DNA of 64,000 bases, from assembly GCA_038087875.1 (NCBI GenBank), contig CM075994.1, forward strand, positions 1,552,001 to 1,616,000, written 5' to 3'. The DNA comes from Malacoraja senta (lineage: Eukaryota). Under the pieces are notes generated by a model, which did not search any database, was not told the origin of the DNA, and was given only the letters and a program-made list of their open reading frames with translations. A program made the position numbers and the translations under genes. The stretch's first letter is position 1; every line of letters begins with the position of its first letter. Positions 545-61,768 of the stretch are shown piece after piece.

Positions 545-915
545 CAAAGATAGACAGGTGACGGGGGGCTGATTGGTAGATGGTTGAACAAAGGCCAGAG
601 ATGGAGAGCCAAGAAGTATGAGGTAAGGAGAGAAGAAGTGCAAAATGTGAAGCCAGAGGAGGGAAGGAAGAGGAGAAATGGGTTCAAACCCAGGGGGGGG
701 GGGAAGAAGAAAAGAGGAGGGGGAGTTCTTAGTAAGTTGAAATCAGAGAATTTGTTGTTCGTACCACTGGGTTGTAAGCTGCCCAAGCGGAATATGAGGT
801 GCTGTTCCTCCAATTTACGTGTGGCCTCATCATGGCAATGCAGTCCTTCCAGGACTGAATCTTCAGTGTGGGAATGGGAAGGGGAGTTAAAATATTTAGA
901 AACCGGGAGATCCAG
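545..915 (-). mobile_element. Penelope-like element fragment (C-terminus of the GIY-YIG region plus pyrimidine-rich 3' UTR)
   Basis: The minus strand reads ..FNSPSHSH..RKLEEQHLIFRLGSLQPSGTN.., typical of vertebrate Penelope-like ORF ends. Confidence 0.75.
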
Positions 916-1797
916 CAGGTCTGCAAATCATACCCCATGGTTTACTGATCTGCTGATCCCTCTATCTTAGATGTGGTTTCATGCTTTGCACGTGTATCAT
1001 GCTCCATCGTTTCATTGAATTCATTGTTTGTATTACAGTGTAGAGTTTGTTGTGTTCACGGTGATCAGGTGAAGATTGGAGGCTGGTGTTTGATGCTGTT
1101 TATAGATTCCTCCTGCAGTAAATTATAGCTGTGAACTACATCAATGCTTGAACTGCATCTTAGCAAGATCAACTTACCACAGTGGTGAAGCTGGTAGAGC
1201 TGCTGTCTCACAGCGACCCGGGGTCGATCCTGACCTTGGATGCTGTCTGTGTGAAGTTTGCACGTTCCCCCTGTGACGGCGTAGGTTTCCTCCGGGTGCC
1301 CCAGTTTTCTCCTACATACCAACGACATGCGGGTTTGTAAGTTAATTGGCCTCTGTAAATTGCTCCTAGTTTAGAGATACAGCGTGGTAATAGGCCCGTT
1401 GTCCTACCGACCAGCGATCCCTGCACACTAGCACAATCCTACACACATTAGCCTACAAAACTGTACGTCTTTGGAGTGTGGGAGACACTGGAGCATCCTT
1501 GTGAAAACCCACGCGGTCACGGGGAGAACGTACAAACTCTGTACAGACAGCACCCGTAGTCAGTATTGAACCCAGGTCTCTGGAGCTGTAAGGCTGCAAC
1601 TTTACCGCTGAGCCACGGTGCCACCCCAAGTCTGTAGGGAGTGGATGTGACAGTGAGATAACAGAACTAACGTTTAGGTAGTGGATTCAGTGGCCCCTTT
1701 CTGAACCATCTTATTTCCTCCTGATTGTGAAACTTCCTGACCACCAACCTCAGCCGGGTTTCTGCGGAAGACTGAAACATGATTTATTGTATTACAG

Positions 1798-1893: not shown

Positions 1894-4264
1894 GTAGGAA
1901 GTTAGAGTGGTTCAGGGCTGGCAAGCCAACAGTGACAAACGCTGCTACTTCAGGAGCAAAGGGAACTGCTGTCATGAAGTTGGCCATGGTTTGCAATAAA
2001 AGCTGATTCAATTTTATTGTCTTTAAAACATCAGATGATGTTCCAAGTAAAAGCAGTTCTAGGTATTTCCCCAGCGGCCACTATATGAAGTGCGGCAGAG
2101 CCTCTATGTTCATGTCATAGTCATACAGCATGGAAATAGGCCCATTGGCCCAATACGTTCATGCCGACCAAGATGCTCCACCTAAACTATCCCATTTAGC
2201 TCGTATCCTTCTAAACCTTTCCCTATCCATGTACCTATCTAAGAGTCTTTTTGGAGAAAAAGGATAGGTGACGTTTCAGATCGGGACTCTTTAGACTTCT
2301 TCAGTCTGAAGAAGGGTCACGACCCAAAACGTCACCCATCCTTTTTCTCCAAAGATGCTGCCTGACCCGCTGAGTTACTCCAGCACTTTGTGTCCATCTT
2401 TAGTATAAGCCAGCATTGTTTGTGCCAAGTGTCTTTTAAATTCATTTATTGGAACATAAGTCCAAGTTACACAACAGAACATTGTCAATCGCTGAATAAA
2501 AACACACCCTGTTGTCATTTTTTTCCAATCTTGGACATGGACAGATTTCTGGCAGAGGCTTGTGTGATGCCAGTGGTCGCCTGAATTGTTTCTCTCCACA
2601 GACTTCCTGTTCAGCATTCTTTCAATGCCAGCAAAACTATGCTCGGACACAATTCCTAAAATTTAATCAGATGTGATTAAACAGAACCATGACCTTAAAC
2701 ATACAACATTTTCTCTGACATGCTATGCTCTAAGTAGTATAATGAATGCTGTGCTCCTGAGGGCCTTTACTGTTAGATTACGTTTTTTTTTAATTTGTTA
2801 ATTTCTCTGGTGCTGGGTGACTCTGGTAACACCAGCAGTTTAGCGCACATCCTGAACTACCATTGAAAACGTGGCCTGTGGCAGCCCAGTGGCGCAGCTG
2901 GTAGAGTTGCTGCCTCACAGCACAAGAGACCCGGGTTCAATCCTGATCTCGGGTGCTATCTGTGAGGAGTTTGCATGTTCTCCCTGTGACCACGTGGGTT
3001 TTTTCTGGGTGCTCAGGTTTCCTTCTACATCCTAAAGATGTGCGGGTTTGTAGGTTAATTGACCTCTGTAAATGTCCCTAGTGTGTAGGGAGTGGATGAG
3101 AAAGTGGGATAACATAGAACTTTGGGACCAAATGTGTCCTACTTGTAGCACTGAAGATCTGTGCTCCAGAAATATGCCTGTCACAGACTTATACAGCACA
3201 GAAACAGGCCCTTTGGCCCAACTTGCTACTGCTGACCAAGAAGTCCCACCTGTCTGCGTTTAGCCCATATCCCTCTGAACCTTTCCTATGCTTGTCCCTG
3301 TCAAAGTGCTTTTCAATGCTTTTGTGCCTGCCTCAATTACTTCCTCTGGAAGAAACTGTAGGTGCTGGTTTATACCGGATAGACACAAATGGCTGGAGTA
3401 TCTCTGCGGATCAGGCAGCATTTCTGGAGAAAAAGAATAGGTGACATTTTGAGTTGGAACCCTTCCTTAGGCTCAGAATGAATCTTAAGAAGGTTTCAGA
3501 TCCAAAATGTCACCTATTCCTCTTCTCCAGAGACGCTGCCTGACCCACTTAGTTGCTCCAGCATCTTGTGTCTAGGTCATTTAGTAAACCCACCATCCTT
3601 TGTGTGGAAAAAATTGCCCCTCAGGTTCCTATTAAATTTAGCCCCTCATACCTTAAACCTATGTCGTCTGGTTTTTGATTCCTCTTCCTTGGGTAAAAGA
3701 CTCTCAGTTGTCACAAGGCAAAAAGAATTGCAGTCTTGACGTTTCTGCTTTCAACGAGCATGGTGAGTGAGAGCTGTCATGCTCAGCTTATCCGTACCAC
3801 CTTTTATCACTGCGATAACTTACTCAGAACACCTCATTGTAGTTTAGTTTATTGTCACGTGTACACTGTACAGGAACAGTGAAAAGCTTTTTTGTTGCAT
3901 GATGTCCAGTCAGCGGATTGGATAGCACACAATTTGGTAATCCACTTTTTGCCATGGATGGTAAATATACAAAATGGATGCATGCAAGGAAGCAACTTTT
4001 GGACATTTGCATTAAAACTTTATATAATTTGGATCTACACACCTATAAGACTGTCACTTTGCACTAGCACTACTTACATGCCATGTCTTGAGACAAATCA
4101 GACATAGAATGCTGTGCTGTACTGTTCTCCGTTCTCCTCTACAGTTTAGAGATACAGCGCTGAAATAGGCCCTTCAGGTCACCGAGCGATGATCACCCCG
4201 AACATTAGCACTATCTTACACATTAGGGACATTTTAACAACTTACCAAAGCTAATTAACCAATA

Positions 4265-7584: not shown

Positions 7585-7962
7585 TCAAATTAGACACAAA
7601 GTGCTGGAGTAACTCAGCAGGTCAGACAGCATCTCTGGAGAAAAGGAACAGGTGATTTTGGCAGGAACCCTTCAGACTGAAAGTGGAGGTGAGGTGTGGG
7701 CAGAGAAGAACTGGAGGTGGGAAAAGGCCAGAACAAATCAGCAAATCCTGCCATTTGTTGTTGTCCCTGATTTGATCTGGCCTTTTCATATCTCCAGTTT
7801 CCCCCCCCCCCCGCTCCCCCTCAACTTTCATTCTGAAGAAGGATTCTGACCCGAAACGTCACCTGTTCTTTTTCTCCAGCAATGCTGTCTGACCCACTGA
7901 GTTGCTCCATCACTTTGTGTTTATCTTCTGTGTAAACCAGCTTCTGCAGTCCCTTCCTACAT
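7585..7962. mobile_element. Fold-back Penelope-derived non-autonomous insertion
   Basis: Inverted arms (CACAAAGTGCTGGAGTAACTCAG...); flanking duplication TGTCTTTTAAATG; CTGAAGA...GAAACGTC core at ~7833-7860. Confidence 0.7.
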
Positions 7963-8299
7963 GTCTTTTAAATGTTGTTATAGTACCTCAAGTCCCTCCT
8001 CTAGCAGTTCATTCCATTCCGCCACCACCCGCTGTGGGAGTATATCAATGTGTACTCAGGTGGACTTCATTCACAAAAAGTGGGCTTGTTATGGCCAAAT
8101 CAGTCTACTCAGTCATCAGCAGAATGATAGAAGCTGTCATTGTGGATACCACTTATCGCTCACTTAGGAAGTCACGGTGCAGCTTTATAGGACTTTTCAT
8201 AGGCTGCATTTGGAGGTTTTTGTGCTGTTCTGCTCGCCCCATTATTGCTGGAGGTTTTGGTGAGGCTGCAGAAGAGGTTTACCTGAATGCTGTCTGGAT

Positions 8300-14293: not shown

Positions 14294-16036
14294 TGGTTTT
14301 AAGCGTTTACTAGCATTGTTAGGCTACAATGCTGAGAACTATATTCTGCACACTGTATTTCTCTTCGCTCTTCCCATTGTACTTAGGTTTGGCTTAATTG
14401 TACAGGTCCAACACCGATTTTCCAGCAACTGGTGGTCCGGCACCTCCTTTAATTACAAAAGTGCACTTGGTCAGGGAACAGCTCAGCCCAAGACCACAAG
14501 AAACTGCAGAAAACTGGATGGTGCACAATGCAATCAGACAATATGGGCGAGGGAACGGTTGAGGCAGCTGATGGGGAGAAGCAAAGTTGTGAAATTGGAC
14601 ATTAATTTGCAAAATTATTGATGCAGCTTTCAAACCCAGCTTGGAAGTGCAATAAGGATAAAGAAGGCATTCTCGCAGTGAGAAAAATATACTGCATAAT
14701 GCTGATGATGTGAAGTTTTAGAACAGGAATTGTCCCTTAATAATAACTAAGACAATATATGATATAATAAATAAGACTATATAATAATATATTAGTTTTT
14801 AGTTTTGGAGGTACAGCGCGGAAACAGGCCATTCGGCCCACGGGTCCATGCCGACCAGCGATCCCCACACATTAACACTATCCTACACCCACAAGGGACA
14901 ATTTTTACATTTATCAAGCCAATTAACCTACAAACCTGTACGTTTTTGGAGTAAATAATAATTAGGATTAATAATAATAATCCCTTAAGAATAAAGTGGC
15001 TGATAGATATTTACAAGTTTGTAAATGGAGATTTATTCAACACCACTGGCTGAAGGGAGAGATTCCAAACCTTTTTCAGGGTGGAAATGTCAAAGACTAG
15101 AGGGCATAGCTTTAAAGTGAGAGGGGCAAAGTTAAAAGGAGAAGTGCGGGGCAGGTTTTTTACACAGACGATGGTGGGTGCCTGGATCACACAGACTCGG
15201 GTGATGGTAGAGGCAGATATGATAGTGGCCTTTAAGTTGCCTTTCGATAGGCACATGGATATGCAGAGGGATATGGGACACGTGTAGGCAGAGGAGATTA
15301 GTTGATCTTTGGCCTACAATGTTTGGCATGGACATTGTGACAAAAGGCCTGTTCCTGTGCAGAACTGTTCTATGTTCTGGAGAGAAAGAAGGTGCTCTCT
15401 TGTACTGCATAGCGATGTGAAGTTTTAGAACAAGGCAAATTAGTTTAGTTTATCATCAGGAGGTACACAAAAATGCTGGAGAAACTCAGCGGGTGCAGCA
15501 GCATCTGTAGAGCGAAGGAAATAGGCAACGTTTCGGGTCGAAACCCTTCTTCAGACCATCCTCTCTCCTTAGTTTATCATCATGTGTACCAGGGTACAGT
15601 GAAGAGCACTTTTGTTACATGCTATCCAGTCAGCGGAAAGACGATACATGATTACAATCAAGCCATCCACATTGTACAGATAAAGGGAATAATGTTCAGT
15701 GCAGGGTAAAGTCTAATTAAAGATAGTCTGAGGGTCTCTAAGACCAAGTTCTGAAAGATGTTCATGAGATTGTAAATGGAGATTTATTTACCATCGGTTA
15801 AATGCAGCCACAATACCTAATACAGTTTGGCACGCTAAACAAAATATATTTGTGCCTGTGTTTGCATGGGATGGGCATAAATAATGTCAGGCTGCTGACT
15901 GATAGGGTATTAAAAGTCATCTTCACTAAATCGTACAAGTGGTTGCAAAACAAGGTGCAGGAATGTTTAAAAAGATTCTTTGTTTACCCAAGTTAGGATT
16001 AGAGATGGACATTTACTCAGTTGCCTTTTCTTTCAG

Positions 16037-16093
16037 CTAACGTATGTGCTGCTGGATATCGTACTCCAGGAAATGTTTCCTGAACTCAGTAAG
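16037..16093 (+). CDS. SNX14: Sorting nexin-14 penultimate coding exon (LTYVLLDIVLQEMFPELSK)
   Basis: tttcag|CTA...AAG|gtaagg; 57 nt; phase 0/0. Confidence 0.95.
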
Positions 16094-16460: not shown

Positions 16461-17764
16461 AGCATGGGGTTGGAACTTGGAGCTCAGAGTCTGTAGTTGT
16501 GGTGCAGATTCCTTTGGGGACTTCAAGAGGTAACTAGACAAAGGAGGAGAGTTTGTCATGCTGTAGAGAAAGGACCTCGTACTCCCCTGGCAGAGGGCCA
16601 GCACAGACACGATGGGCTGAATGACCTCCCTCACTATACTGTAACCATTCAAAGATCTGAACTTTTGCGTTGAGTGTACCACCTGTCAAAAGTGCCTCAA
16701 CTGTTCCCAATGCGTATGAAAAATTTATTAGGATATTTTATTAAATTATAGAACTTTTCAGTAGTGAACTGGAAAGGACAGTTTCCCCTTTGAAAAGTCA
16801 TAGTCATACAGTGTGGAAACGGGCCCTTTGGCCCACACCGACGAACATATCCCATCTACACTAGTCCCACCTGCATATGTTTAGCCCATATCCCTCGACA
16901 CCTGTCCTATCCATGTACCTGTCTAATTGTTTCTTAAACATTGCATAGTACCTGCCTCAACTACCTCAACTGGCAGATTGTTTCATACACCAATCACCCT
17001 TGGTGTAAAAAAGGTACCCCTCAGGTTCCTATTAAATCTCTCTCACCCTCTTTAAACCTCTGGTTTTCTATTCTCCCTCACTGGGCAATCTATTCCTCTC
17101 ATGATCTTGTACACCTCTAGAAGATCATCCCTCAGCCTCTTGCGCTTCAGGGAATAGATTCCCAGCCTGCTCAACCTCTCCCTATAGCTCAAGCCCTCGA
17201 GTCCTGGCAACATCCTCGTAATCTTCTTTGCAGGTGCCTCGACTATTCTCAATGCACATGGAAAATGTATTTGGGTATTTTATTATATTGTAGAACGTTT
17301 CAGTGGTGAACTGGTAGGACTGTTTTTTCTATACATTTTCCACACAAAGGGTGTTGGGTGTATGGAACAAGCTGCCGGGGGAAGTAGTTGAAGCGGGTAC
17401 TATCACATCGTTTAAGAAACATTTGGAGAGGTACATGGATAGAACAGGTTTAGAGGGATATGGGCCAAAAGCAGGCAGGTGGGACTAGTGTAGATGAGAC
17501 ATGTTGGCCGTTGTGGGCAAGTTGGGCCGAAGGGCCTGTTTTCATGCTCTATGACTCTAATGTAGGAGGAGGGGAAGAAATAGATGCGAGTCCAGGTGGG
17601 CACAGGCGAGATGGGCGGGGGGGGGGGGGGGTGGAGAGTAAGAAGGGGAGGGTGTTCCCAGAGAAGCTGCCTGACCCGCTAAGTCACTCCAGCACTTTGC
17701 GTTCCATGTTATTAATCCGTTTGTGGGCTGTGGTTTTTTCTAAGTAATCTTCTGTGTGTTCCAG

Positions 17765-19125: not shown

Positions 19126-21187
19126 TATCTCTCAAAACCTTTCCTCTCCATGTACCTGTCTATGTGCTGTTTAGTTAGTCATACTGCATGGAATCAGGCC
19201 CTTCAGGACAACTTGCCCACACCGACCAAGAAGCCCCATCAACACTGGTCCCACCTGCCTGCATTTTGCTCGTATCTCTAAACCTTACCTATCCATGAAC
19301 CAGTCCAAATTATCTTTTGAACACATATAGTACCTGCCTCAACTACCACCTCTGGCAGCTCGTTCCATATACCCACAACCCTCTAAGTGAAATGTCTTAG
19401 AACTATGTTTGTCTGAAAGTATTTCTCACCTAGGGTATCTATTACCATTCTTCATTGGAGCAGAATTAAGTCATTCGGCCCATTGAGTCTACTCTGCCAT
19501 TCAATCATGGCTGATCTATCTTGCCCTCTCAATCCCATTCTCCTGCCTTCTCCCCATAACCCCTGACACCCATACTAATCAAGAATCTGTCAATCTCCGC
19601 ATTAAAAATATCCATTGACTTGGCCATAGCCGTCTGTGGCAATAAATTACACAGATTTGCTGCCCTCGGACTAAAGAAATTCTTCCTCAACTCCTTTCCA
19701 AAGGTATGTCCTTTTATTCTGAGGCTATGGCCTAGACACACCCACTAGTGGAAACATCCTCTCCACATCCACTCTATCCAAGCCTTTCTTGACTTTGTTC
19801 TTCAAGTTAAAGTACAACCTTTGTAACACTTTAATACAAACACTGGATAAATAAAACAAAATCTCATCACTTCAGCGTGGCACAGCTGCTAGAGTTGCTG
19901 TCTCACAACGTTAGAGACCCAGGTTCGATCCTGACCTTGGGTGCTGTCAGTGTGGAGTTTGCACGTTCTCCCTGTGAGTGCGTGGGTTTACTCCGGGTGC
20001 CCACACATCCCAAAGGAATGTGGGTTTGTGGGTTAATTGGTAAAATTGTCCTAGTGTGAAGGAAGTGGATGAGAAAGTGGGATAACATAGAAACATGGAA
20101 CTGCAGATGCTGGTTTACAAAAAAAAGACACAAAGTGCTGGAAACGGAACACCACTTATCCATGTTCTCCAGAGATGCTGCCAGACCTGCCGAGTTACTC
20201 CAACACTGTGTCCTTTTTCGAATTAGTGGGAAAGGCTGAACGATGGTCGGCGTGGAAGGGCATGTTTCCATGCAGCATCATTAAATTAAACCTCAAGGGA
20301 ATATTCGGCCCATCACATCCATTCCAGCTACCGGGGAGCAATCTCATTCATCCCCTTCCCTCTCTCCTTATTCCTTTCCCTGCACTTTATTCCGCCGCAC
20401 ACTCATATTTCGATAAACTCCTTTGTCATCAACCTGCACTGGGGTAATTCACAGCGACCATTTATCCCAACAGCATGTGCATACAACTGGAGAACAGACT
20501 GGAGCACACGGAGGAAGCCTAGGGAGCGTGCAAACTCTGCAGAGACAACGGCCAAAGTCAGTTCTGAGCCCAGCCTGCTGCCACACAGACATCATTCTCA
20601 GAATGTTTCTGAATCGATGGTGTGCATTTATGTTCTTGATCCAAGCAGCGCTACGTTTCAGAGCCTGTGCCTGTACGGAAGCTTGTTTAAAGACGTTGGG
20701 GATTTTTAAGGTGGAGATTAATAGGTTCTTGATTAGTATGGGTGTCAAATATTTTGAGGAGATGGTAAGCGAATGGGATTGAGAGGGAAAGGTAAATCAA
20801 CCATGATTGAATGGCGGCGTAGAATCGATGGGCTGAATGGTCTAATGCTGCCCCTACGACTTATGAAGTTTAAATTTGAACCTCTTATTCTGCATGGGTA
20901 GCTTATAAGATCTGGGAGCAGAATAAGTTCATGGCTGATCTATCTTTCCCTCTCAACTCCATTCTCCTGCCCTCCATTTTAGCCCTGATGCCCTTGCTAA
21001 TCAAAAATCTTTCTATCTCTGCCTTAAAGATATCCATTGACTTGGCCTCCACAGAATCACCACCCTCTGACTAAAGAAATTCCTTCTCATTTCCTTTATT
21101 AAGGTACGTTCTTTTATTCTGAGACTTTGGCCTCTGGTCCTAGACTCTCCCAATAATGGAAACATCCTCTCCACATACACTATCCAG

Positions 21188-22340
21188 GCCTTACAACCCA
21201 ATGGTATAAATGTTGATTTCTCCAATTCTAGGTAAGCTCTAACACCCTTTTTCTCCCATGTGGCCCACTTGGACTTGCACATAGTTGTAGGTAACCTCTA
21301 ATACTCCCCCCCCCCCCCCCCCCCGGACAAGCACCGATTCCTCCCCTTTCACCTACATGGCTTCCTCTAGCTTCACAATTCACAACTCTTCATTCTTTTT
21401 GTATCACACCTTCTGTCTTGTCACCTCTGCCCTTTATCCAGCCATCTACCAAACAATCAGAATCACATTTTATTCGCCAAGTATGTTTTGCAACATACGA
21501 GGAATTTCATTGGCCAGGTTTCATTAAAAGCAACAGATCAGTCAAAAACACATTTTAACATGAACATCCACCACAGTGACTCTTACACATTCCTCACTGT
21601 GGTGGAAGGCGAAATAAAGTTCAAGTCCTTCCCTTAGTTCTTCCCGGTCGTGGGCCTCGCGCCCCCCTTTGACGGGACGATCTTCACTCCCGTAGCCGGC
21701 GGCATTCGGGCCCTCCACATCGAGGTGATCAAGCTCCCGCATCGGGGGGATATCAGCTCCCCCGCGCCGGGCGATCGAACCTCGCTTTGGGGCTGGTCGA
21801 ACCTTCTGCGACGTTGGAACTTCCCGTCTAGCCTCTCCGAAAGACTGCGAGCTTTTGATGGTAAGTCCGCGGTGGGAGCGATCCCAGGCAAGGGATCAGC
21901 TCCGATGTAAAGTCCGCGCCCCGCGATAGAGCTCAAAGTCAGTTCGAGGAGGCCTCCAGCTCCATCGAATGGAAGGCCGCAGAGCGCGCCAGAGAATGTG
22001 ATCCGAAAATTAATCACATCTCCGGCAGAACCTGAAAAAAGTTCCCCCCTCCCCCCTCCCCCCACATAAAACAAACCGAAGAACATTAAAACAAACTTTT
22101 AACACACTAAAAATAACAAAAAGAATGAAAAAACAAACAGACTGCTGACAGGGCAGCCATCTCCCTGGCACCCCTGGTAATTTGTCCCCCCTCACCAACA
22201 GTTCACCTGATATTTGCAAGACTTTCTACATCCCCCTTTACAATTAGTCTGAAGAAGGATCCTGATCCGAAACGCCACTTCCGAAATGTTCCCCAGGAAT
22301 GCTGACTGACCCGCTAAGCATTTTGTCTTGTCTTTTTAAA
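21188..22340 (+). mobile_element. Penelope-like 3' end (ORF terminus plus pLTR), interrupted by a GC-rich element
   Basis: LQPNGINVDFSNSR* at ~21190-21235, then a poly-C UTR; resumes at ~22185 and contains CTGAAGAAGGATCCTGATCCGAAAC (22249-22273). Confidence 0.65.
21457..22178 (-). mobile_element. GC-rich non-autonomous retroelement
   Basis: Aligns by eye along its full length to 61075-61768; the minus-strand tail is ..CATACTTGGCGAATAAAA-TGTGATTCTGATT. Confidence 0.7.
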
Positions 22341-24196
22341 GGTTGAAAACTGGCAAGGCCAGGTATGGTAGCTCATAAAGATTGAGAGATCCTTCATAAA
22401 AAGATTACAAAACGATGGAAGTTATGCACTGACTAGAAAACAAAAAACAGGTGTCAATTCTGGAGGCTCCGTGTTAGAAAGGTGAAGAGGAAGAGGCGTT
22501 TCCCTGGAACACCGGCATTTTGTGTCTATCCAAGTCTGTCCAACCTCTTTGTAGCTAATACCTTCTAATCCTTCTAAGCGACTTTGAGTCCTGAAAAGCG
22601 CTATATAAAAAATTAAAAAATCTATTATTATTAATCCAGGTAGCATCTAGGTAAGAAAGAACTGAAGATGCTGGTTTAAACCGATGATAGACACAAAAAG
22701 CTGGAGTAACTCAGCGGGACAGGCATCATCCCGAGAGGAGAAATGGGTGACGTTTCAGATCAAGACAGTTCAGACTGAAAGGTCTCGACCCAAAACATCA
22801 ACCATTCCTTCTCTCCAGAGATGCTGCCTGTCCTGGTGAGTTGCCCCTTTTTGTGTCTATCTTTTAGCATCTTGGTAAACCTTTTCTGCACCCTCTCCAA
22901 AGCCTCCACATCCTATAATGGGGCAACCAGAAATGAACACCATACTACAAATGTGGTCTCTGGTAGCTCAAAGCCAAAACCTCTTTGAGTATGTGTTCCC
23001 TCCTCCACAGCATTCTCCACCACAAGTTATGGGAGTAGAATTAGGCCATTCAGCCCATCGACTCTACTCTGCCATTCAATCATGGCTGATCTCTGCCTCC
23101 TAATCCCACTTTCCTGCCTTCCCCATAACCCTTGACACTCGTTATAATCAAGAATTTGTTGATCTCTGCCTTAAGAATAGCCCTCTGTGACAATGTGTTC
23201 CACAGATTAAGTACCCACTGACTAATGAAGTACCTCCTCTCCTCCTTTCTAAAAGAGCGCCCTTTAATTCTGAGGCTGTGACCTCTGGTCCTAGACTCTC
23301 CCACCAATGAAAATATACTTTCCACATCCACTCTTTCCTCCTGGTATCTCCACTCGTGGTCCACCCCAGGCCACTGTGAAAGTCACCCGCTCAGCAGTGA
23401 CCGTGGGAAATGCTTGGCCTCGGCACCCCACAGGAAAGAAGCGGAGGTAGTGGAGCGCTGACTTTCACGACAAATGCAAGCATTAAACCTTGCACCGTTG
23501 CACAATTTCCACTCCCGCCCATTCCAGGCTTGTCGCACGATCTGCCCTAGTGCTGTTTGTTATCCTGTAATTTATCACCAAGTGCTACACGGTCAAAGGG
23601 TTAACTGATCACGCCCCTGTGTTAATACATAATACATGACCTTTAAGGTAAGTGAATAATATTTTGATTGTTCATTCCCTTCACACATTGGTTTAATCTT
23701 TTGATAAATGTGATGTCAGAAGCCAAGAAACACTAGCTTTCCTGATTCACGGTTGTCACTGGCACGCTACAGGGTTGGGATTCCACACCCACAGTTCAAT
23801 GTAAGTTTATTTAGTTTTAGTTATGGTTTAGGTTTAGTTTCTCTTCAGTTTTAGTTTAGAAATACAGCACGGAACAGGCTCCCGGGCCCACCGAGTCCAC
23901 GTCAGCCAGAGATTCCCGCACACTAGCACTATGCTACGCACACTGGGACAATTTACAATTTTATCAAACCCAATTAACCTACAAAACTGTATGGATTTGG
24001 AGTGTGGGAAGAGCACCCAGAGAAAACCCACGCGGTCACGGAGAACGTAAAATTCCGTACAGACAGCACCCGTAGTCAGGATCGAACCCTGGTCTCTGGC
24101 GCTGTAAGGCAGCAACTCTGCTGCCCCGAGTTTTAGTTTTGTTGTCATGTGTACCAAGGTACAGTGAAAAGGCTTTTTGTTATATGCTATCCAGTC

Positions 24197-34148: not shown

Positions 34149-34503
34149 ATACATAAATCCAATCGAATGTACACTGAAGTGTTCTGAAGAAGGCCTCCAA
34201 CTGGAAACGTCGCGTATCCAAGTTCTCCAGAGATGCTGTCTGACCCACTGAGTTACTCCAGCACTTTGTGTCTTTCATTGTTTTACTTAGTTGGGTAGAT
34301 AGACTAAGGAAATATAGCATGTCTCCAACTACTTTTTCCAACTTTTAAATACACTGTAGAAAGCATATTATCGGAGATAGACACAAAGTGCTGGAGTAAC
34401 TCAGTGGGTCAGACAGCATCTCTGGAGAACTTGGATACGCGACGTTTCCGGTCGGAGGCCTTCTTCAGACCACTTCAGTGTACATTCGATTGGATTTATG
34501 TAT
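34149..34503. repeat. ~125-bp inverted repeat (34149-34273 / 34379-34503) of Penelope-derived sequence plus flank
   Basis: The arms are near-perfect reverse complements; the same peptide appears in ORFs on opposite strands. Confidence 0.85.
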
Positions 34504-34904
34504 GCGTGATGTTGGAAAATGGATGGGTGAAGTTTCGGGTCGGCTCTGAAGAAGGGCTTCTTCACTCATCCTTTTTTTCCAAAGATTCTACCTGACCGGT
34601 GAGTTAATCCAGCACTTTGTGTCCATCTTTGGTAAAAAAACAGCATCTGCAGTTCTTTGTTTCTACACGTGTATCAGCTTGGTTTAGCAACAGCTCAAAA
34701 CTGCAAGAAATTGCAGAGATATGTGGATGTTGCCCAGTCCATTACACAGACCAACCTCCCCGCCCCTCTATGGACTCCGTCTATTCTTCACCTTGCCTCG
34801 GCAAAGTGGCCAACAGATTCAAGGATTATTTTCACTCGGTCATTCTTTCTTCTCACCTCACCTGTCAGGCAGTAGATACAAAAGCTTGAAAGCATGCATG
34901 TAAT

Positions 34905-38613: not shown

Positions 38614-40804
38614 TATGTGCATCCAGTGACACCAATCAAAAATATTGTAAATCAACCACTTTCAATATAAAACTGTATCATTACTCCTGTGCCAACAGTG
38701 ATTTCCATTTATCTACATGTGTCTTTGGTAAAACATAAGCTTTGTGCTTTGATTAAAGTGACCTGATTTCAAAGGAATTCCTTGTGAATCACAGTGGGTG
38801 AAAGTCTTTGTGCCTCGGAGTTGTGTAGTCTGTAGGTTCTGCTGATCCCTACAGCTGTGATCCCACCACCAATGTTCTGTTCGAGTCCGTGCTGTGTGTT
38901 TGTGAAGTCAATCTTCTTGTGATCTCAGTAATAGCTTGATGTCAGTCGGCTTCCTCCACACTCCTGACCATTGGTCGCCCGGGGTGGGGGGAGGAGGGTC
39001 GATGGGAGGGGGGAATCTCCCTGTATGTTTGCTCCTGGGGCTGGCCAAGATGACCCAGGCATCGGACAGTCGAGGGTCCGGTCCATGTCGACTGCCTGCC
39101 CCTCTTTCCAGGCATTACGTCCGTGCCCTCGATTCCCCGGAGAAGGAAGACATGGTGTCCACGGGTACTTTGGAGGCTTCCGTGAATGCTGGTCGCTGCG
39201 GGAGGTTGTGGACATGACTTTCAATGTTGTAATTTGATAGAGTCATACAGCAAAGAAACAGGTCCTTCAGCACAACTTGCCCACACCGTCCACGATGCCC
39301 CATCTACACTAATCCCACCTGCCTGCATTTAGCCTATATCCCAGCCCACAGTACAGGTTGATGTTTGCAAACTGCACAAACCAGCGCTCAGGCCGATTCT
39401 TCCCCCTCCTGCTAAATCCAAGGGTAGATAAACCAGTCATCTAACTCACTGCCCTGTCAACAAAGCCCTGCAAATTGGTTGCTGCATTCCACCGCGTTAC
39501 AGCAGCAACAATTCTCTGGACGTGGTTGTAAAGTGCTCGGGTCTTCCTGAGGTCAAGAACGGTGATTCATAAATTCAGTGCTGGAGTAACTCAGCAGGTT
39601 GGGCAACATCTCTGGAGAATAGTCTATGGACTCCACCTTTCCCGAGGTCAACAATGGGTCATTAGCTCCACCCTTTCTGAGGTCATCTGTTGCCGGCACT
39701 GATTTGTTCTGGTCTTTCCTCACCTCCATTTTTTTTCACCGCCCCATCATCTCTATCAGTCTGAAGAAGGGTCCCGATCCAAAACGTCACCTATTCCTTT
39801 TCTCCAGGGATGCTGTCTGACTCACTGAGTTACTCCAGCAGTCTGTCTCTGGTGAATATGGATAGGGGAAGTTTAGTGTCAGGTTCTTCCATCTTGTCCA
39901 CCCTTCTTGAGCCTGAAGCAGGAGCCAATGTCCTCAATGAGGTAGAGGTGAATCATACATTACCTCAGCTTATAGAAGGACTATTCAGAAGCCTAATAAC
40001 AGAGGGGAAGAAGCTGTTCCTGAGTCCGGTGGTGCGCGCTTTCAAGCTTCTGTGTATTCTGCCTGAGGGGAGCGGAGAGAAGGAGTGACCGGGGTGGGAC
40101 AAGTCTTTGATTTTGTTTAAGAAGGAACTGCAGATGCTGGAAAATCGAAGGTACACAAAAATGCTGGAGAAACTCAGCGGGTGCAGCAGCATCTATGAAG
40201 AAGGGTTTTGGCGCGAAACGTTGCCTATTTCCTTCGCTCCATAGATGCTGCTGCACCCGCTGAGTTTCTCCAGCATTTTTGTGTATCTTTGATTATGTTG
40301 GCTGCTTTACTGAGGCAGCGTGGAGTGTAAATGGAGTCGATGGTGGGGAGTCTGGTCTGTGTGAAAGGTCCCTGTCCATCGCAACCATATCAAGCTGCTG
40401 CAATACTGTGTGCTGCACTGCAGGAAAGATGCATCTGTGCAGCAGAGTGTGCAGGGGAGATTCACCCAGTCTGAAGAAGCGACTCGACCCGAAACGTCAC
40501 CTATTCATGTTCTCCAGAGATGCTGCCTGAGCCGCTGAGTTACTCCAGCACTTTGTGCCCTTTTCCTTTTGAAAACCAGCATCTGCTGTTCCTTGCATCC
40601 TTCATAAATAATGTGGGGTTTTGCAATCTCAGAAACCTCCGGTGTCTCTGGATCCCACAGTCAGGCTGGGGATTGACCTGCTGCTGGCTTGGAAGAGAAG
40701 ATTGGATTTGTTGCTGTCATTGTGTCCAATATACGTTGATTTTTTTAAATTAAAAAATGCAAGCTGCTATTTCCCTGAACTCTTCCGCCATGACTCGCCA
40801 GGAT

Positions 40805-46562: not shown

Positions 46563-49500
46563 TTCAAAGTTTATAAACAGAGAATGGAAGTTTCAGTTTT
46601 ACGGTGTTAGCCACTTGCATGCTCCTTTAGAGGACTTTAAAAATTCATTTTCCCTTTCACCAGACATTCAGCCCATCGAATCTATGGTGTTTCTCAGAGC
46701 AGTCATAGAGTCATACAGCACGGAAACAGACCTTTCGGCACAACTTACCCATGCCGACCAAGATACCCCATAGTCCACCAGCCCACGTTTGGCCCTTATT
46801 CCTCCAACCCTTTCTTATCCATGTCCCACCAACCCCATTTCACCACCACTTTTCCTGTAACCCAATCTCTCGCACTCTGATTCCCCCAACCCACAGACAC
46901 ATGGAGGGCAATTAACCTACAAACCTGTACATGTGGGAGGGAACCGGACTCTCATGACTCTCAGCACTGGGATTCTGGATTCATTGACTAGCAGCAGCTC
47001 AACCTGCTGGTCTGTTTAGTGTAGTTTAGAGCTACAGCACGGAACTGGCCTTCAGCCACACCGAGTCCTTGCCAACCATTGATCACTTGTTCATACAAGT
47101 TTCTTATGTTATCTTTACTTTAGTTTAGTTTATTGTCACGTGTACCAAGGCACAGTGAAAGCTTTTTTTTGTGCTATCCAATCAGCAGAAAGACAATACA
47201 TAATTACAATCAAGCATCCGCAATGTCCAGATACAGGACAAAGGGATCTTTATAAAATATCTCACTTTCACACCCACTCCCTACACAATTCACAGAGGGC
47301 CAATTAACCTATAAACCCTGCACGTCTTCAGGATGTTGGAGGAAACCAGAACACCCGGAGAAACCCATGCAGTCACAGGGCGATCGGTGCAAACTCCACA
47401 CAGAAAGCAGCCGAGGTCAGGATTGAACCCGGGTCTCTGGAGCTGCGAGACAGCGACTCAACCTGCTGCACCATCGTGCTACCCTGCTCGATTTATACTT
47501 TGCTAAGCGATTCCTTATGTTAGGATACCAAACACATGTGGGGAGTTACTGATTTTGTGTACATTGGAGAAGTTTTAGGTCAAGTTTTTATAAACACACT
47601 TTAAAATCTGTTTGATTATGGTGGTTCATGACAGATTCTTGGTTCAATAAAATATAAATTAGCTCGGTCAAAATAAATGTTGTTTTCAAAACTGACGCAG
47701 CTTTGGGCAGAGTTCACAATTGGATAACTAGTGGGGCCCAGCTTCAAGGTGAGAGGGGGAAAGTTTAACGGTGATGTGTGGGACAGTTTTTTTTTTTACA
47801 CAGAGTAGTGGGGGCCTGGAATACATCGCCAGGGGTGGTGGGTGGAGGCAGATACGATAATGGCATTTAAGATGCTTTTTGGATAGGCACATGGAAGTGC
47901 AGGGAATGGAGGGATATGGATCATGGACAATCAGATGAGATCAACTTGGCATCATGTTCGGCACAAACGTGGCCAAAGGGCCCATTCTGTGCTGTTCTAT
48001 TTTCCCATAACCAGCTTGAAGTAAAAATACACAAGGCGCTGGAGTAACTCAGCAGATCAGGGGAACATGGATCGGTGACGTTTCGGGTCGGAACGGACGG
48101 AACCAGCTGGTTCCTTCAGACGGAACCAGCTAATAACCAGTGTGGTATTTCCCTGGTTTAAGATTGCCTGGAGCAATACTACAGACCGATACATGTTTAT
48201 TAATGAATACAAAAATTAAATTGACTTTGGTTTAGAGATACAGCATGGAAACAGGCCCTTCAGCCCACGCCGACCATTGATCACCTATTCACATTTAGTT
48301 CTATGATTTCCCACTTTCTCATCCACTTGCTACACACTGGGGGCAATTTATACAGGGGACAATTAACCTACAAGTCTGCAAAACTTTGAGATGTGGAAGG
48401 AAACTAGAGCACCCAGAGGAAAACCCACGGGGATGCAGAGAGAATGTACAAACTCCACACACAGATAGCACCTGAGGCCAGGATCAAACCCGCGTCTCTG
48501 GTGCTGTGAGGCAGCGGCTCTACCCCTGCGCCCGCCACTGTGACATCCAACCGAACAGCTAATCCTGGCTTCGCCCTTGGTCATTTTCTCATCTCCTGGT
48601 TGGGAATCTCCTTCAGTGAATGACCTCTGGTTATCAAACTCTCAATAACTGTTTCTATTCTCCAAGCTGGTTGTTAGAACATAGAACCGTACAGCACCGC
48701 AACGGGACCTCTGGCCCACAATGTTTGTGTCAAACAGTTAATCTAATCTCCTTTGCTTGTACATGATCCATATCCCTCCATTCCCTGCACTTCCATGTGC
48801 CTATCCAAAACCTCTTAAACACCCCTATCGTATCTGCCTCCATGACCACCCCTCGCAGTGCGTTCCAGGCCCCCACTACTCTGTGTAAAAACCGTGACCC
48901 ACACGTCTCCATTAAACTTTCTCCCTCTCACCTTATAGCTTTGACAATAGACAATACGGCCCTTCAAACCAGCACCGCCATTCAATGTGATCATGGCTGA
49001 TCATCCACAATCAGTATCCCGTTCCTGCCTTCTCCCCATATCTCCTGGCTCCGCTATCTTTAAGAGCCTTATCTAGCTCTCTTTTGAAAGTATCCAGAGA
49101 ACTGGCCTCCACCGCCCTCTGAGGCAGAGAATTCCACAGACTCACAATGTGTGAAAAAGTGTTTCCTCATCTCCGTTCTAAATGGCTTACTCCTATTCTT
49201 AAACTGTGGCCCCTGTTTCTGGACTCCCCCAACATCGGGAACATGTTTCTCAGCTCCCTAGTTTGCCCTGGGAAAAATGGTTCTGACTGGTCTATCACAT
49301 CTATGTCTCTCATCATTGAATATACTTCCATCAGGTCACTCCTCAGCCTCCAGCGTTCCAGAGGAAAACAAATCCATAGAAAATTAGTGTGGGGTGGAAC
49401 TGCAGATGCTGGTTTTTACCGATTAAACACAAAATGATTGAGTACTCAGCGGGTCAGGCAGCATCTCTGGAGAAAGACACAAAATGCTGGCGTAAGGGTC

Positions 49501-50568
49501 TGACATGAAACTTCACCTATTTTTCTCCACAGATGCTGCCTGACCCGCTGAGTTTACTTCAGCAGCTTGTGTCTGTCCAGAGAAAACTAATCAGCTCGTG
49601 ATGTTTGCCTGACACTGTGGCATCTGTAACATAAAAGATTAGGGAATGCTAAACCAATCTGCCAAAGGAAGTCCTGCAGTAGATTTTCTGCACTGGTTGC
49701 GATAAGATATCCAATTGTAAGCTCCACCCAAAGCTGTGTCAGTTTTAAAATCAACATTTAATTCGGCCGAGTTCATTTACATTCTATTGAACAAAGAATC
49801 TGTCATGAACCAACAAAATCAAACAGTGTCTGAAGAAGGGTCTCGACTGCCATGCTGTGAGAACAGAGAGGTTGAGAAGGAGTTTCTTCCCAGAGGCCAT
49901 TAGGACTGTAAACTCCTATCTCACCAGGGACTAACTTTACTGTGTACCACTCTACTGGTTTTAAAAATTGGTTTTTTGTTTTCCCCGTTTTTTTCCCCTT
50001 TTTCCTTCCGCCCACAATATTTAATATGTAAAAGAATATGTAATTCTATTCTTCCATTCTGTTGTAGTTTTTTTTTTTTTGCACAATCCGCAGGCATTGC
50101 CACTTGTCATTTCACTACACATCTCGTATGTGTATGTGACAAATAAACTTGACCCGAAATGTCGCCAATTCCTTCTCTCCATAGATGCTGCCTCACCCGC
50201 TGAGTTTCTCAAGCATTTTTTGTCCACCTAGTGTTTTTAAAAGCGTGTTTTTATTAAAGAATTGACCTAAAACTACTCTGACGTACACAAAATCAGTAAC
50301 TCTCAGCATGTGTTGGGCATCGAAACGTAAGGAATCGTTTTGTAAAGCACAAATAGAGCTGGGCGGCATGGTGGTGCAGCGGGTAGAGCCACTGCCTCAC
50401 AGCTCCAGAGACCTGGGTTCATTCACCTGACCTCAGGTGCTTTCTCTGTGGAGTTTGCACATTCTTCCTGTGACTGCTTGGGTTTCTTCCTATTGTTCCG
50501 GTTTCCTCCCACATCCCAAAGACGTGCAAGTTTGTCGGTTAATTGGCCCGGCCAGTGGTTGCACCTAC

Positions 50569-51220: not shown

Positions 51221-52049
51221 GAAATGCAGCATTGATTTCATCAGTTCACTTGAACATTTCTACTTGACCGTTTTGGGGACGGTGATGTGAGTGGGAGTGA
51301 TGGAACAGGTTGGGTGACCACGTTACCTCTCCACACTGACGTGCAGAGACACACCGACTCTGCATCGGACACCACCACCGCCTGCTTCCCCCTGCGCCGG
51401 GTAAGTAAATTGTCCCTTGTGTGTAGGATAGTACTAGTGTGCGGGGATCGCTGGTTGGAGCAGGGTCGGTGGGCCGAAGGGCCTGTTTCCACGTTGTATT
51501 TCTAAAGTAAACTAAATAACGGAGGGGGAAAATGCTTTAACTGATTCAGTCATTTAATAGTTTTGTTTTATTGTCAGCGGAAGGCAGATGGTCCGAGCCA
51601 AAGTCTGAAGAAGGGTCTGGACCCGAAACGTGACCCATTTCCTTCTCTCCAGAGATGCTGCCTGTCCCGCTGAGTTACTCCAGCATTTTGTGTCTACCTT
51701 CGATTTAAACCAGCATCTGCAGTTCTTTCTACACAAGGCAGATGGTCCTTTGGCCAACCAATGCGGCAGTGAATGTAGGGCCCAGGGGAATATTGTAGAG
51801 CAATGGGCTGCACAGTGGCGCAGCGGTAGAGCTCCTGCCTTACAGCACCAGAGACCCAGGTTCGATTCTGACTACTGGTGCCGTCTGTACGAGTTTGTAC
51901 ATTCTCCCCGTGACCGTGTGGGTTTTCCCCGGGTGCTCTGGCTCCTCTCACACTCCAAAGATGTGCAGGTTTGTAGGCTAATTAACTTCCGATGATTGTG
52001 GACCTATGATGGTATGGTATGTGTCAGCGGGAGATGGTAGACTGCTCAC

Positions 52050-52327: not shown

Positions 52328-53815
52328 GGACTTTCGGGCACAGCATTAAAATGGTTTGAATCCTACTTGAAGGACAGGGACTACTTTGTGTCTATAGGTA
52401 ATTACACATCTGAGCGTGCAAAATTACATGTGGAGTTCCCCAGGGCTCCATTCTGGGGCCTCTTCTGTTTAACATCTACATGCTTCCACTGGCTCAGAGC
52501 ATGAAAAACATCAAAATATGTTACCATAGTTATGCAGACGACACACAAATCTACATAACAATACCACCAGGAGACTATAGTCCAATACAAGCACTGAGTA
52601 GATGCATTGAGCAAATCAACGATTGGATGAACCAGAATTTTCTCCAATTAAACAAAGAAAAAACTGAAATAATTGTTTTTGGAGCCAAGGAAGAACGATT
52701 AAAAGTTAGCACCCAGCTTCAAATGGTAATGCTAAAAACAACAAACCAAGCCAGAAACTTAGGAGCAGTCATGGACTCAGACCTGAACTTCAACAGCCAC
52801 ATAAAAACAGTCACAAGTCAGCCTACTATCACCTAAAGAATATATCAAGGATTAAAGGACTTATGTCTCAGCAGCATTTGGAAAAACTTGTCCATGCATT
52901 TATCTTCAGCCAGGCTCGACTACTGTAACAGTGTCTTTACAGGTATCCCTAAAAAGTCGATCAGACAGCTGCAGTTAATTCAGAACGCTGCTGCTCGAGT
53001 CCTCACTAAGACCAAAAAAAGTAGATCACATTACTCCAGTTCTGAGGTCTTTACACTGGCTTCCTGTCTGTCAAAGAATTGATTTCAAAATACTACTGTT
53101 GGTTTATAAAGCACTGAATGGTTTAGGGCCAAAATACATTTCTGATCTTCTGCTTAGCTACGAACCACCCAGACCTCTCAGATCGTCTGGGACAGGTCTG
53201 CTCTGTGTCCCCAGAGTCAGAACTAAACATGGAGAGGCATCATTTAGTTTTTATGCACCACATATCTGGAACAAACTTCCAGAAAACGGCAGGTCTGCTG
53301 CAACTCTCAGCTCTTTTAAATCTAGACTGAAGACTTTTCTGTTTGCCGCTGCCTTTCAGTAAACAATACAATTTATTAAAGAAGGAACTGCAGATGCTGG
53401 GAAAATCGAAGGTACACAAAAATGCTGGAGAAACTCAGCGGGTGCAGCAGCATCTATGGAGCGAAGGAAATAGGCAACGTTTCGGGCCGAAACGTTGCCT
53501 ATTTCCTTCGCTCCATAGATGCTGCTGCACCCGCTGAGTTTCTCCAGCATTTTGTGTACCTTCAATACAATTTATTAATTACCTATACTGCACTGTAACT
53601 TCTATTTCCTGGTTTTATTCTATTTTAAATATTTTATTTGATTGCTTTTAATTTTGTAATTATTTTATCTGAATAATCTAATAATCATTTTATATCTAAA
53701 TGTCATTTTATATGTGTTTCTTTCAAACGCTTTAAATGTTTTATGTAAAGCACTTTGAATTACCTTGTGGTTGAAAGGTGCTATACAAATAAACTTGCCT
53801 TGCCTTGCCTTGCCT
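52328..53815 (+). mobile_element. 5'-truncated L2-clade LINE with a (CTTGC)n tail, in NT5E intron 4
   Basis: Encodes [21 protein letters not shown] and RLDYCN; ends AATAAA-CTTGCCTTGCCTTGCC. Confidence 0.88.
53380..53562. mobile_element. Fold-back Penelope-derived insertion in the L2 3' UTR
   Basis: 16-bp TSD CAATACAATTTATTAA (53364-53379 and 53563-53578); near-perfect internal inverted arms of ~75 bp. Confidence 0.85.
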
Positions 53816-55562: not shown

Positions 55563-55978
55563 TATCAAGTCTTCCCTCAACCTCCGATGTTCCAGAGAAA
55601 ACAATCCAAGTCTATCCAAACTCTACATGTGGTTGAAACCCTCTAATCCAGGCACCATTCTGATAAACTTCCTTTGCACCCTCTCCAAAGCCTCCATATC
55701 AATTCCTGTAACAGGGTGACCAGAACTGCACGCAATACTCCAGATCTGGCCTCACCAAATGTGTAGGATGAAATTGCAGATGTTGATTTACAATGAAGAT
55801 AGGCACAAAAAGCTGCAGAAACTCAGCGGGTCAGACAACATTTCTGGTGAAAAGGAATGGGTGAGGTTTCAGGTCAAGATCCTGAAACGTCAGCTATCCA
55901 TGTACTCCAGAGATGCTGCCTGACCCGCTCTTGTGTGTATCTGTGGCCTGACCAAAGTCCCACAGAGGTGTGTGTTAC

Positions 55979-57612: not shown

Positions 57613-58927
57613 CTGGAACAACAACAACAATGCACGTTCTCCAGTTATAGGTAACTTTTACCAACACCTGCCTTCCCTCTCCCCCATTCACTTTACACCA
57701 CAATGTGTGTTTGAGTTTGAGTTTATTGTCACGTGTACCGAGGTACAGTGAAAAGCTTTTGTTACGTGCTAACTAGTCAGTGGAAAGACGACACGATTAC
57801 AATCAAGCCATCAACAGTGTACAGATACAGGATAAAGGGAATGTTTAGTGCAAGATAAAGGCAGCAAAGTCCGATCAAAGATAGTCTGAGTGTCTCCAAT
57901 GAGGAAGTGTGGGATTATACCGGCCCTTTCCCCTCTGTCACCCCTGCCCCTCCTGATCCATAATCCCCTCCTTCCCCCCGCCGTGGCCTCCAGCATCATC
58001 AAGGACCAGTCACACCCTAGTCATTCCCTCTTTTCCCCTCTCCCATCAGGCAAGAGGGACAGAAGTTTGAAAACACACCTCCAGATTCAGGGACAGTTTC
58101 TTCTCAGCTGTTATCAGACAACCGAACCATCCTATAAGCAACTAGAGAGCGGTCTTGACTTCCCATCTACCTCACTGGAGACCTTCGGACTATCTTTCAT
58201 CGGACTTTTCTGGACTCTATCTTGCACTAAACGTCATTCCCTTTATCCTGTATCTGTACACTGTGGACGGCTTAATTGTAATCATGTGTAGTCTTTCTGC
58301 TGACGCAACAAAAAGCTTTTCAATGTACCTGGGCACACGTGACAATAATAATCGAAAGTAAAGCCTGACTGACCTTGCACCAGTTTCTTCCCCACATTAA
58401 CAGTCCATTAACTAGTTTCACGGCTCTCACTATGTATCCCTCTTGGACTCACACATGTTTCTGTTGAACAATCTGCCTATCAAGGAACTGGTCGCTGGCC
58501 GTGATTTGTCCAGCATCTTTTTGCTTCCAGTTTGTTTCCAACCTGCCTCAACTCACTCGAGTACAATCAGTCTGAAGAATGGTTCCGACCCACAATGTCA
58601 CCTATGTACTCCAAAGATGCTGCCTGACCCGCTGAGTGACTCCAGCACTTTGTGTCGATTTTTACAGACAATGCACACTTGATGGGAATGTCAATGCAAG
58701 AGTCATTAGTTTATTGTCACGTGTAGCGAGGTACAGTGAAAAGCAGCCAGCGGAAAGACAATCCATGATTACAATCGTCCACGGTGTACAGATACATGAT
58801 AAAGGGAATATCGTGAATAACGTTTCGTGCAAAGTCAAACCAGTAATGTCTGATGAAAGATAATCGAGTGTTTCCAGTGGGGTAGATAGTAGTTCAGGAC
58901 AGCAGTCGCAGGCCGTTCAACACCTAC

Positions 58928-61074: not shown

Positions 61075-61768
61075 TAATCATAATAATACTTAATTAGCCA
61101 AGTATGTTTTGCAAAATACGAGGAATTTCATTTGCCAAGTCAGTCATACAAATAAAAAGCAACAGAACACACAAAACACATTTTAACATAAACATCCACC
61201 ACAGAGACTCCACATTCCTCACTGTGATGGAAGGCGGAAAAAAGTTTAATCTCTTCCCTTAGCTCTCCTACACTCGCGCAGCCGGCGGCGTTTTGGGCCC
61301 TCCACATTGTGCCGATCAGCTCCCGCATCGGGGGGATGTCAGCTCCCCCGTGTCGGCGATCGGACCCCGCGTCGGGGCTGGTCGAGCCTCTGCGTTCGTT
61401 GGAGCTCCCGACATCCATGACCTCTCCAGAGACTGTGAGCTCTTGATGGTAAGTCCGCAGGCTGCGGTTGGAGCGATCCCAGGCAAGGGATCAGCTACGA
61501 TATTAAGTCCACGCCCCGCGGTGGGGCCTAAGGTCAGTCCGAGGAGGCCTCCAGCTCCAGCGATGGTAGGCCGCAAAGCAACAGGAGACGCGACCCAGAA
61601 ACATCGTGTCTCCGGCAAAGTAAGAAACTGAAAAAAGTGTGTCCCCCCCATAAAACAAACCGGAGAACATTTACACAAACTTATAAAACACACTAAAAAT
61701 TTAAAAAAAAAGAGAAACAAACAAACATGGTTGGAGGGGCTGCCAATCGTTCTGCGCCCCTGGTGGTC
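61075..61768 (-). mobile_element. GC-rich non-autonomous retroelement
   Basis: Homologous along its length to 21457-22178. Confidence 0.7.

Follow-up and report, generated by a model that had tools for sequence, protein, structure and literature searches.

The locus examined here raises the question of what a hammerhead-ribozyme-like core is doing in an intron of a skate gene, and of how the core and its many relatives came to lie there. We analyzed 64,000 nucleotides of Malacoraja senta (GCA_038087875.1, contig CM075994.1, positions 1,552,001 to 1,616,000 of the forward strand), called the window below; all coordinates are those of the window. Direct reading of the minus strand from 15554 to 15527 gives CUGAAGA-A-GGGU(UUCG)ACCC-GAAA-CG-UU, letter for letter what a preliminary description of this DNA had reported. 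This is a minimal hammerhead core running from C3 to H17 (15527..15554, minus strand), with a CUGA box, an extra A, a 4-bp stem II, GAAA, an ACGU palindrome and a GUU triplet; the predicted cut site lies after 15527. The 5' strand of stem I (GGU, 15555..15557, minus strand) pairs with GCC at 15526-15524, making a stem of 3 bp with U-G as its first pair, and upstream of that strand lie extra bases at 15558-15568. The entire insertion is 110 nt long (15459..15568, minus strand), stops at the point that we call end 1 with no tail beyond it, lies antisense in the last detected SNX14 intron, and is flanked by a perfect 14-bp target-site duplication (TSD; left copy 15445..15458, right copy 15569..15582).

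The core belongs to a family. A 26-nt pattern, with at most 3 mismatches allowed, matches 11 times in the window compared to a mean of 0.00 in 100 shuffles, and an extended profile gives 37 hits in 23 clusters across the 64 kb; these numbers, together with the read-run contig counts given below, bear out the high abundance that had been claimed, as the copies themselves bear out the minimal type I architecture. The motif or a fragment of it is present at every one of the 11 further positions named earlier. Two entries need amendment: the supposed variant copy at 49830 is family sequence but merely a 20-nt fragment, and 34184 and 34440-34468, where the motif does occur, are the two halves of a single inverted duplication (128 nt, 97%, flank included). 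The stem II pairings given for 51605 (GGGTC/GACCC) and 22249 (GGATC/GATCC) are correct, but both copies are defective elsewhere, the former with G at position 17 and the latter with U16.1>C. Rfam returned no hammerhead hit at the gathering score in the window and, at the focal site, 7 weak hits up to E 10, none of them a hammerhead.

The intronic location of many copies also stands: four clusters fall in introns of SNX14 (exons on the plus strand at about 1731-1892, 10731-10838 and 16034-16114) and eight in introns of NT5E (exons on the minus strand, from 59151 to 40808). The Nexin_C exon was the only host-gene lead in a Pfam scan of 150 of the 256 candidate ORFs. Of seven solo copies lying within host introns (one of these in a presumed intron 1), six are antisense to the gene, a small sample. 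Roughly 58% of the window consists of sequence that recurs elsewhere in it. Decayed transposase frames, presumably Tc1/mariner-like, occupy 4425-5700 (minus strand), and nested non-LTR RT and endonuclease frames, which we take to be CR1-like, cluster on both strands at 23800-33400.

The family unit begins with the hammerhead, which is followed by a pyrimidine tract and then by a conserved body that stops at end 1, about 95 nt past C3; an optional tail of ~35 nt extends the unit to end 2, so that there are two fixed 3' ends. ARAGORN found no tRNA genes in the window, and the unit begins at the hammerhead with no tRNA-like head. No ORF start could be placed in the pseudo-LTR (pLTR) sequence of the window, where the single ATG frame runs into a stop within the tail of the 51605 copy. 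Twelve of the 23 clusters are head-to-head inverted pairs, in which the tail, read by eye, is on one arm in 9, absent in 2 and ambiguous in 1, and none of the 23 is a head-to-tail array.

The pairs differ in where their arms meet. The pair at 2248..2416 is joined at CAG-T-CTG, the 5' edge of the hammerhead; that at 22644..22871 has a CAG-A-CTG junction, the tail on its minus arm and a 14-bp TSD with 1 mismatch; and an old pair (3343..3595) meets immediately upstream of both boxes. Junctions within stem II occur in the youngest pair (53371..53563; 67 nt 100% complementary, tail on the minus arm, 16-bp TSD) and at 55762..55929 (tail on the minus arm, 13-bp TSD with 1 mismatch), and the pair at 60946..61076 is joined at the CUGA box. 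At 20090..20222 the plus arm begins at ~G12 and the minus arm is the end plus tail. Longer arms are found at 7586..7965 (upstream UTR of about 90 and 125 nt, plus arm with tail, 13-bp TSD) and 39577..39850 (about 137 nt of upstream UTR on the plus arm). A young pair at 40114..40292 (14-bp TSD with 1 mismatch) and a pair in an NT5E intron at 49396..49587 both carry the tail on the minus arm, and 34149..34667 holds the inverted duplication of one copy (34149-34276 / 34376-34503) and a rearranged pair (34515-34667). Solo copies lie at 40462..40602 (plus strand, with tail, beginning at ~-4 of C3), 48023..48121 (minus strand, decayed, NT5E intron), 51595..51735 (plus strand, full tail, 14-bp TSD at 51581-51594 / 51735-51748) and 58377..58663 (plus strand); short fragments without a hammerhead lie at 17658..17704 (plus strand) and, similarly, at 49828-49847, 50147-50231 and 62903-62985.

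These are insertions with duplicated targets: a TSD score of at least 11 was reached by 7 of 21 clusters compared to 1 of 420 mismatched flank pairs, with lengths of 13-16 bp (small clusters at 34183 and 49828 were left out, and the 22231 cluster was tested within its long remnant). The pairs at 2241-2437 and 7571-7974 are independent insertions into the same short stretch of another repeat, with GTCTTTT overlapped by either TSD. This stretch is similar to end 1 of the element itself; a target preference is possible. The arms of the 55762-55929 pair look like different sequence variants, as if from two RNAs; in most other pairs the arms match each other. Beside the 60946-61076 pair there is a separate small fold-back in the flank (60905-60945), and an unrelated repeat begins exactly at the pair's end 1 (61076).

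The Penelope origin proposed in the preliminary description is supported, and is now tied locally to a GIY-YIG end. The C-terminal codons and stop of a Penelope-like element (PLE) GIY-YIG endonuclease lie at 21185..21236 (plus strand; batoid PLE profile E 0.004, tblastn E 5e-4), followed on the same strand by a 3' UTR (21237..21455) with 68.5% similarity across 143 nt to that of a second remnant, by an unrelated inserted repeat (21456..22178) bounded by its homology to two other copies (61076-61765 and about 12630-12840), and by the remaining UTR, hammerhead (C3 at 22249) and body (22179..22336, plus strand); it is through this copy that the motif is linked to a PLE ORF. The UTR stretch after the insert resembles the second remnant no better than chance (171 of 1000 shuffles), so the link from 21185 to 22249 rests on contiguity. 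The second remnant (545..948, minus strand) carries a GIY-YIG C-terminus at 948-724 and UTR (profile E 3e-28) and ends before any hammerhead. The upstream part of the 58572 copy resembles the UTRs behind both GIY-YIG remnants (5 of 500 and 2 of 500 shuffles as high), a second, weaker link to PLEs.

The part of the second remnant at 745-906 matches 32 proteins, including skate entries and GIY-YIG or RT domain proteins, several of which have a CX4CX2C linker; since CX2-5CxxC is the linker of Neptune-type elements (PMC8557442), the source element likely belongs to the Neptune clade. The window remnants stop short of the RT-EN linker, so that the cysteines are seen in the homologous proteins only; the window holds GIY-YIG ends and no RT part.

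Outside the window, the core was found at 120 metagenome loci and 1 genome-bin locus. A PLE-ORF match lies upstream on the same strand in 33 of these 121 loci, ending 47-112 nt before the core in 32; the ORFs bear the Pfam domains GIY-YIG and RVT_1 and in turn detect the GIY-YIG C-terminus at 906-745 (minus strand) in the window with E 1e-7. The search pattern had fixed stem II and left stem I free, and stem I pairs 1-4 are Watson-Crick in 55, 50, 52 and 34 of 64 contexts, compared to 46.8, 29.9, 26.7 and 22.9 when shuffled. Double-change cells in stem I number 22 versus 9.7 (0 of 500 shuffles), in 15 rows of which 12 were outside loci chosen as distinct families; stem I in the outside loci is 3-4 bp long with covariation. 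By their sequence the outside loci are analogous families: the downstream body of the window family is in none of the 121, the sole profile hit covering the core alone. Viral contigs gave no motif match and genome contigs gave one (L121), which bears the same PLE end and is probably host DNA within an assembled bin. Head-to-head pairs occur in outside PLE families too (L006, L010, L035, L040, L044, L086, L095 and L111), several of them centered 15-24 nt upstream of the hammerhead.

Taken together, we are rather confident that the motif is a minimal type I hammerhead in the 3' end (pLTR) of a Neptune-like PLE, and that the window copies are short, mostly decayed insertions, likely made by the element's own RT and endonuclease. 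The distinct family of non-coding derivatives that had been proposed is not needed: because 4 of the 16 box-bearing insertions continue upstream into PLE UTR, the pieces can be read as 5'-truncated ends of ordinary PLEs.

Whether the copies still work as ribozymes is a separate matter. We aligned 17 of the 22 arms with a CUGA box, leaving out the truncated or rearranged ones at 2304, 34546, 48119, 49830 and 60984. The extra A between 9 and 10.1 is in all 17, ACGU in 11, and G-C is the commonest 10.1-11.1 pair; stem I in most copies has 2 Watson-Crick pairs, the third position being unpaired in 15 of 17. Compensatory change in stem II, suggested by the earlier observation that differing stems can still pair, was not seen in this small sample of decayed arms (2 double-change pairs versus 2.4 in shuffles; 66.4% of cells paired versus 69.2%), and RNAalifold gave no consensus structure for it. 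Ten of the 17 arms have a core change or a G at position 17, and one is intact: the focal copy alone combines an intact core, a 4-bp stem II, a 3-bp stem I and ACGU. G12 has become A, at a CpG, in 7 of 17 arms, and CpG columns are 25% changed. Non-CpG core columns are changed less than the body (3.1% versus 10.9%, P 0.001; the difference no longer holds with subfamily-like columns removed, 6.3%, P 0.13), a pattern that fits source elements under selection and copies decaying neutrally.

In folding predictions, stem II has a probability of 0.00-0.06 in all 5 copies folded to end 1, the focal copy and two others fold no better than shuffles (z -1.0 to 0.7), and the dimer-active fold sits far above the dimer MFE; in copies other than the focal one, the core is prone to pairing with the pyrimidine tract that follows it. 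Lunse et al. (2017) reportedly dealt with variants of PLE hammerheads that cleave as dimers. In the 51595..51735 copy the tail contains 8 nt perfectly complementary to the body's AGAUGCUG, whose pairing closes a long predicted stem at 51653-51720 (plus strand; z only -1.0), a candidate for a protein-binding or RT-start structure.

The copies thus show no sign of being working ribozymes, the one intact arm among 17 being antisense to its host gene. That some intronic copies are nevertheless kept to act on SNX14 or NT5E pre-mRNA is an idea to which we give very little credence. It can point to the intact focal copy, which trimmed to 38 nt is predicted to fold as a hammerhead (MFE -7.7 kcal/mol), but in longer context the stem II probability of that copy drops to 0.06, and the only sense solo copy in an NT5E intron (48119) is decayed. 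Activity at the focal locus appears unlikely because the copy lacks helix III, has no tandem partner or intact same-strand neighbor, and lies antisense to SNX14. The opposite suspicion, that the likeness to a hammerhead is due to chance, would draw on the missing Rfam hits and on the absence of covariation and consensus fold among the window copies; it is the least probable of all the readings considered here, given that unrelated loci have the same core, its stem I covarying, downstream of PLE ORFs, and that the motif carries the hallmarks published for minimal hammerheads (PMC4209133).

The 5' boundary of the insertions is the more informative feature. Upstream UTR is present in 5 of 22 box-bearing arms and missing from 17 (the 22249 arm being scored as long by its ORF-end link, not by the panel test); counted per insertion, the figures are 4 and 12 of 16. 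Those 12 start at the ribozyme's 5' edge, not at the cut site, and 8 of them are bounded by symmetry or TSD, not by homology. Six solo copies (15554, 34468, 40471, 48119, 49830 and 51605) start at -2 to -4. A constant-hazard model of 35 hand-read start positions, a naive model, gives a p of about 2e-8. At most one start, that of the old fragment at 62903, could lie near the cut site, and cleavage products were rejected as templates on that ground. Stalling of the RT at the fold was rejected as well, since stalls would be expected at the 3' side of stems.

Contigs from four read runs were mapped on the 51605 copy, giving 229,017, 276,100 and 270,287 records in three related DNA runs and 25,130 in the fourth; these are not copy numbers, but they show that at least four organisms have the family in great abundance. 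One of the runs, X22, is probably DNA. In all four, loose ends accumulate both at end 1 (51694-51696) and close to end 2 (51729). Most contigs have C at position 17, and head-to-tail and opposite-strand joints are both present. Head-to-tail joints from 51700 to 51602 were found in 19, 18, 13 and 2 contigs, and from 51729 to 51602 in 20, 17, 19 and 5, with the intervening letters not included. The opposite-strand joints found at 51639 and 51646 coincide with an indel in the reference copy and so were not counted as starts at the cut site. Other opposite-strand joints connect 51693-51696 with 51728-51730, that is, end 1 directly to end 2, tail-to-tail; there are 15-37 such contigs in each larger run and none in the window.

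As a tentative explanation, which we prefer to the others without holding it firmly, the cDNA would run off the RNA near -3 and anneal at the ribozyme palindromes. By analogy with the anole element (PMC11167929), the PLE protein would nick both target strands, and cDNA synthesis would start at two RNA-internal sites downstream of the hammerhead, producing end 1 and the tail end. The cDNA would then run off at the RNA 5' end, which would lie a few bases before the CUGA box; annealing of two run-off cDNAs at the short palindromes of the ribozyme could give head-to-head pairs. We favor this account because it covers solos and pairs alike. Uncleaved RNA would be the likely usual template, and the ribozyme may matter in source elements only, as a dimer or with assistance from protein, while genomic copies decay neutrally.

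An RNA end may be needless, however: with the same PLE origin, cDNAs or a self-primed strand joined at palindromes (CAG-T-CTG, the stem II arms) could set the hot spot, and palindrome joining alone ranks close behind run-off, as a possibility that we take seriously while thinking it somewhat doubtful. The CAG-N-CTG junctions at 2248-2416 and 22644-22871 and the stem II junctions at 53371-53563 and 55762-55929 speak for it, as do the inverted-junction palindromes described in PMC3846280. Two outside families have no 5' pile at -3, and in one the 5' ends pile at -15 to -24 beside the quasi-palindrome AAC-G-GTT, which favors palindrome joining over a start site. The Initiator-like match near -3 is weak evidence since it is found at the equivalent place in outside families lacking the pile. 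Palindrome joining has to contend with the six solos, which have no partner arm and start at -2 to -4 all the same, two of them bounded by intact TSDs.

The non-coding derivative family of the preliminary description, taken here as a separate non-autonomous family (SINE- or retrozyme-like) of short RNAs of about 100-135 nt with its own master loci, moved in trans by PLE protein, seems unlikely to us. Sharp 5' and 3' ends, the head-to-tail joints in four runs and the tandem retrozymes of one chondrichthyan genome (preprint 10.64898/2026.07.22.740005) would suit such a family, but 4 of 16 insertions enter PLE UTR, one of them reaching the ORF end, and the same boundary is common to several sequence variants. 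Moreover, the window has neither tRNA genes nor, among 23 clusters, a head-to-tail array, the joint data do not include the letters between the two sides, and the unit ends differ from the cut site, which a circular intermediate would require them to match. We think it more improbable still that the CAG preceding the core serves as a 3' splice site and that a spliced RNA sets the boundary, after the manner of Drosophila virilis Penelope, whose intron ends at helix I (PMC4209133). The pyrimidine-rich UTR of long copies does end in CAG, and the 21185 remnant has a donor-like GTAAG that overlaps its stop codon (21225-21240, plus strand), but the solos have no common upstream exon and the arms of pairs join with no exon between them.

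With regard to splicing generally, the UTR of the 21185 remnant could be a pLTR intron, with GTAAG at the stop and a pyrimidine tract and CAG before the hammerhead. At 51640-51660 (plus strand), and in other copies, a second pyrimidine tract and CAG followed by AG-ATG lie ~20 nt past the cut site, a possible cryptic splice acceptor judging from its letters.

Returning to run-off, we entertain a further and more speculative idea, which we regard as rather doubtful: the tiny insertions may be the Penelope counterpart of retroviral strong-stop DNA, with RT starting in the 5' pLTR of the messenger and running off its 5' end ~3 nt before the CUGA box, and with ribozyme self-complementarity joining two products. 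If true, the genome would be a huge fossil record of PLE transcription start and of both RT start sites, and would also give the in vivo share of ribozyme-cleaved template.

The family is a known kind of sequence, with an effect on host genes unlikely, and as a ribozyme discovery it matters little: minimal hammerheads at the ends of fish PLEs are already published, and the window copies are mostly dead. Its value lies in natural data on how PLEs prime and finish reverse transcription, an unsettled question. The two 3' ends of the window family agree with the in vitro result for the anole, and the 5' ends at the ribozyme edge rather than at the cut site suggest that in vivo, too, uncleaved RNA serves as template. 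In addition, long double-stranded RNA would be expected in host pre-mRNAs from the many inverted pairs that lie in introns. Our literature searches turned up no paper on the family in skates or rays; Repbase, Dfam and preprint supplements may contain it.

Known work includes PMC2377424 and PMC6155905 as well as the papers compared here. Minimal hammerheads (min-HHRs) in the pLTRs of PLEs of fish and other metazoans occur for the most part singly, in truncated copies, and are weakly active as dimers (Cervera and de la Pena 2014, PMC4209133); the main text of that paper makes no mention of sharks, skates or cartilaginous fish. The window motif resembles them in being type I without helix III, with palindromic 15.2-16.2, an extra base between 9 and 10.1 and G10.1-C11.1, and its mostly dispersed single motifs, with opposite-strand pairs close by, resemble the min-HHR PLEs; its stem I of 2-3 bp and stem II of 4-5 bp differ from the 4-5 and 7-8 bp of their Schistosoma families. 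Non-LTR retrozymes are built as tandem repeats, have circular RNA and bear hammerheads that are mostly canonical (Cervera and de la Pena 2020, PMC7229834); they derive from pLTRs according to a preprint that includes one chondrichthyan genome (Li, Clavereau and Pollet 2026, 10.64898/2026.07.22.740005). The window copies are likewise non-coding, hammerhead-bearing and pLTR-related, but they are dispersed solos and inverted pairs with few if any 5' ends at the cut site, unlike the tandem retrozymes (PMC7229834).

Likenesses are also found among Neptune-clade EN+ PLEs (Craig et al. 2021, PMC8557442; Arkhipova et al. 2013, PMC3846280), with their C-terminal GIY-YIG and near-3' hammerhead, and among EN+ PLEs in the same papers there are inverted 5'-truncated partners, a 30-40-bp tail at one end, TSDs, junction palindromes and solo pLTRs. 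The window TSDs of 13-16 bp differ from the 8-10 bp of rotifer EN+ PLEs, and nearly all window copies are shorter than 140 nt per arm and start at the ribozyme edge, unlike EN+ PLEs (PMC8557442, PMC3846280). In the anole element Poseidon (Frangieh et al. 2024, PMC11167929), the tail is delimited by two internal sites of RT initiation downstream of the hammerhead, both strands are cut and then extended, protein assists the ribozyme, and the template is mainly uncleaved RNA. Poseidon belongs to a different clade, and the window family is known here from its sequence; in both, the tail is bounded by two 3' ends downstream of the hammerhead.
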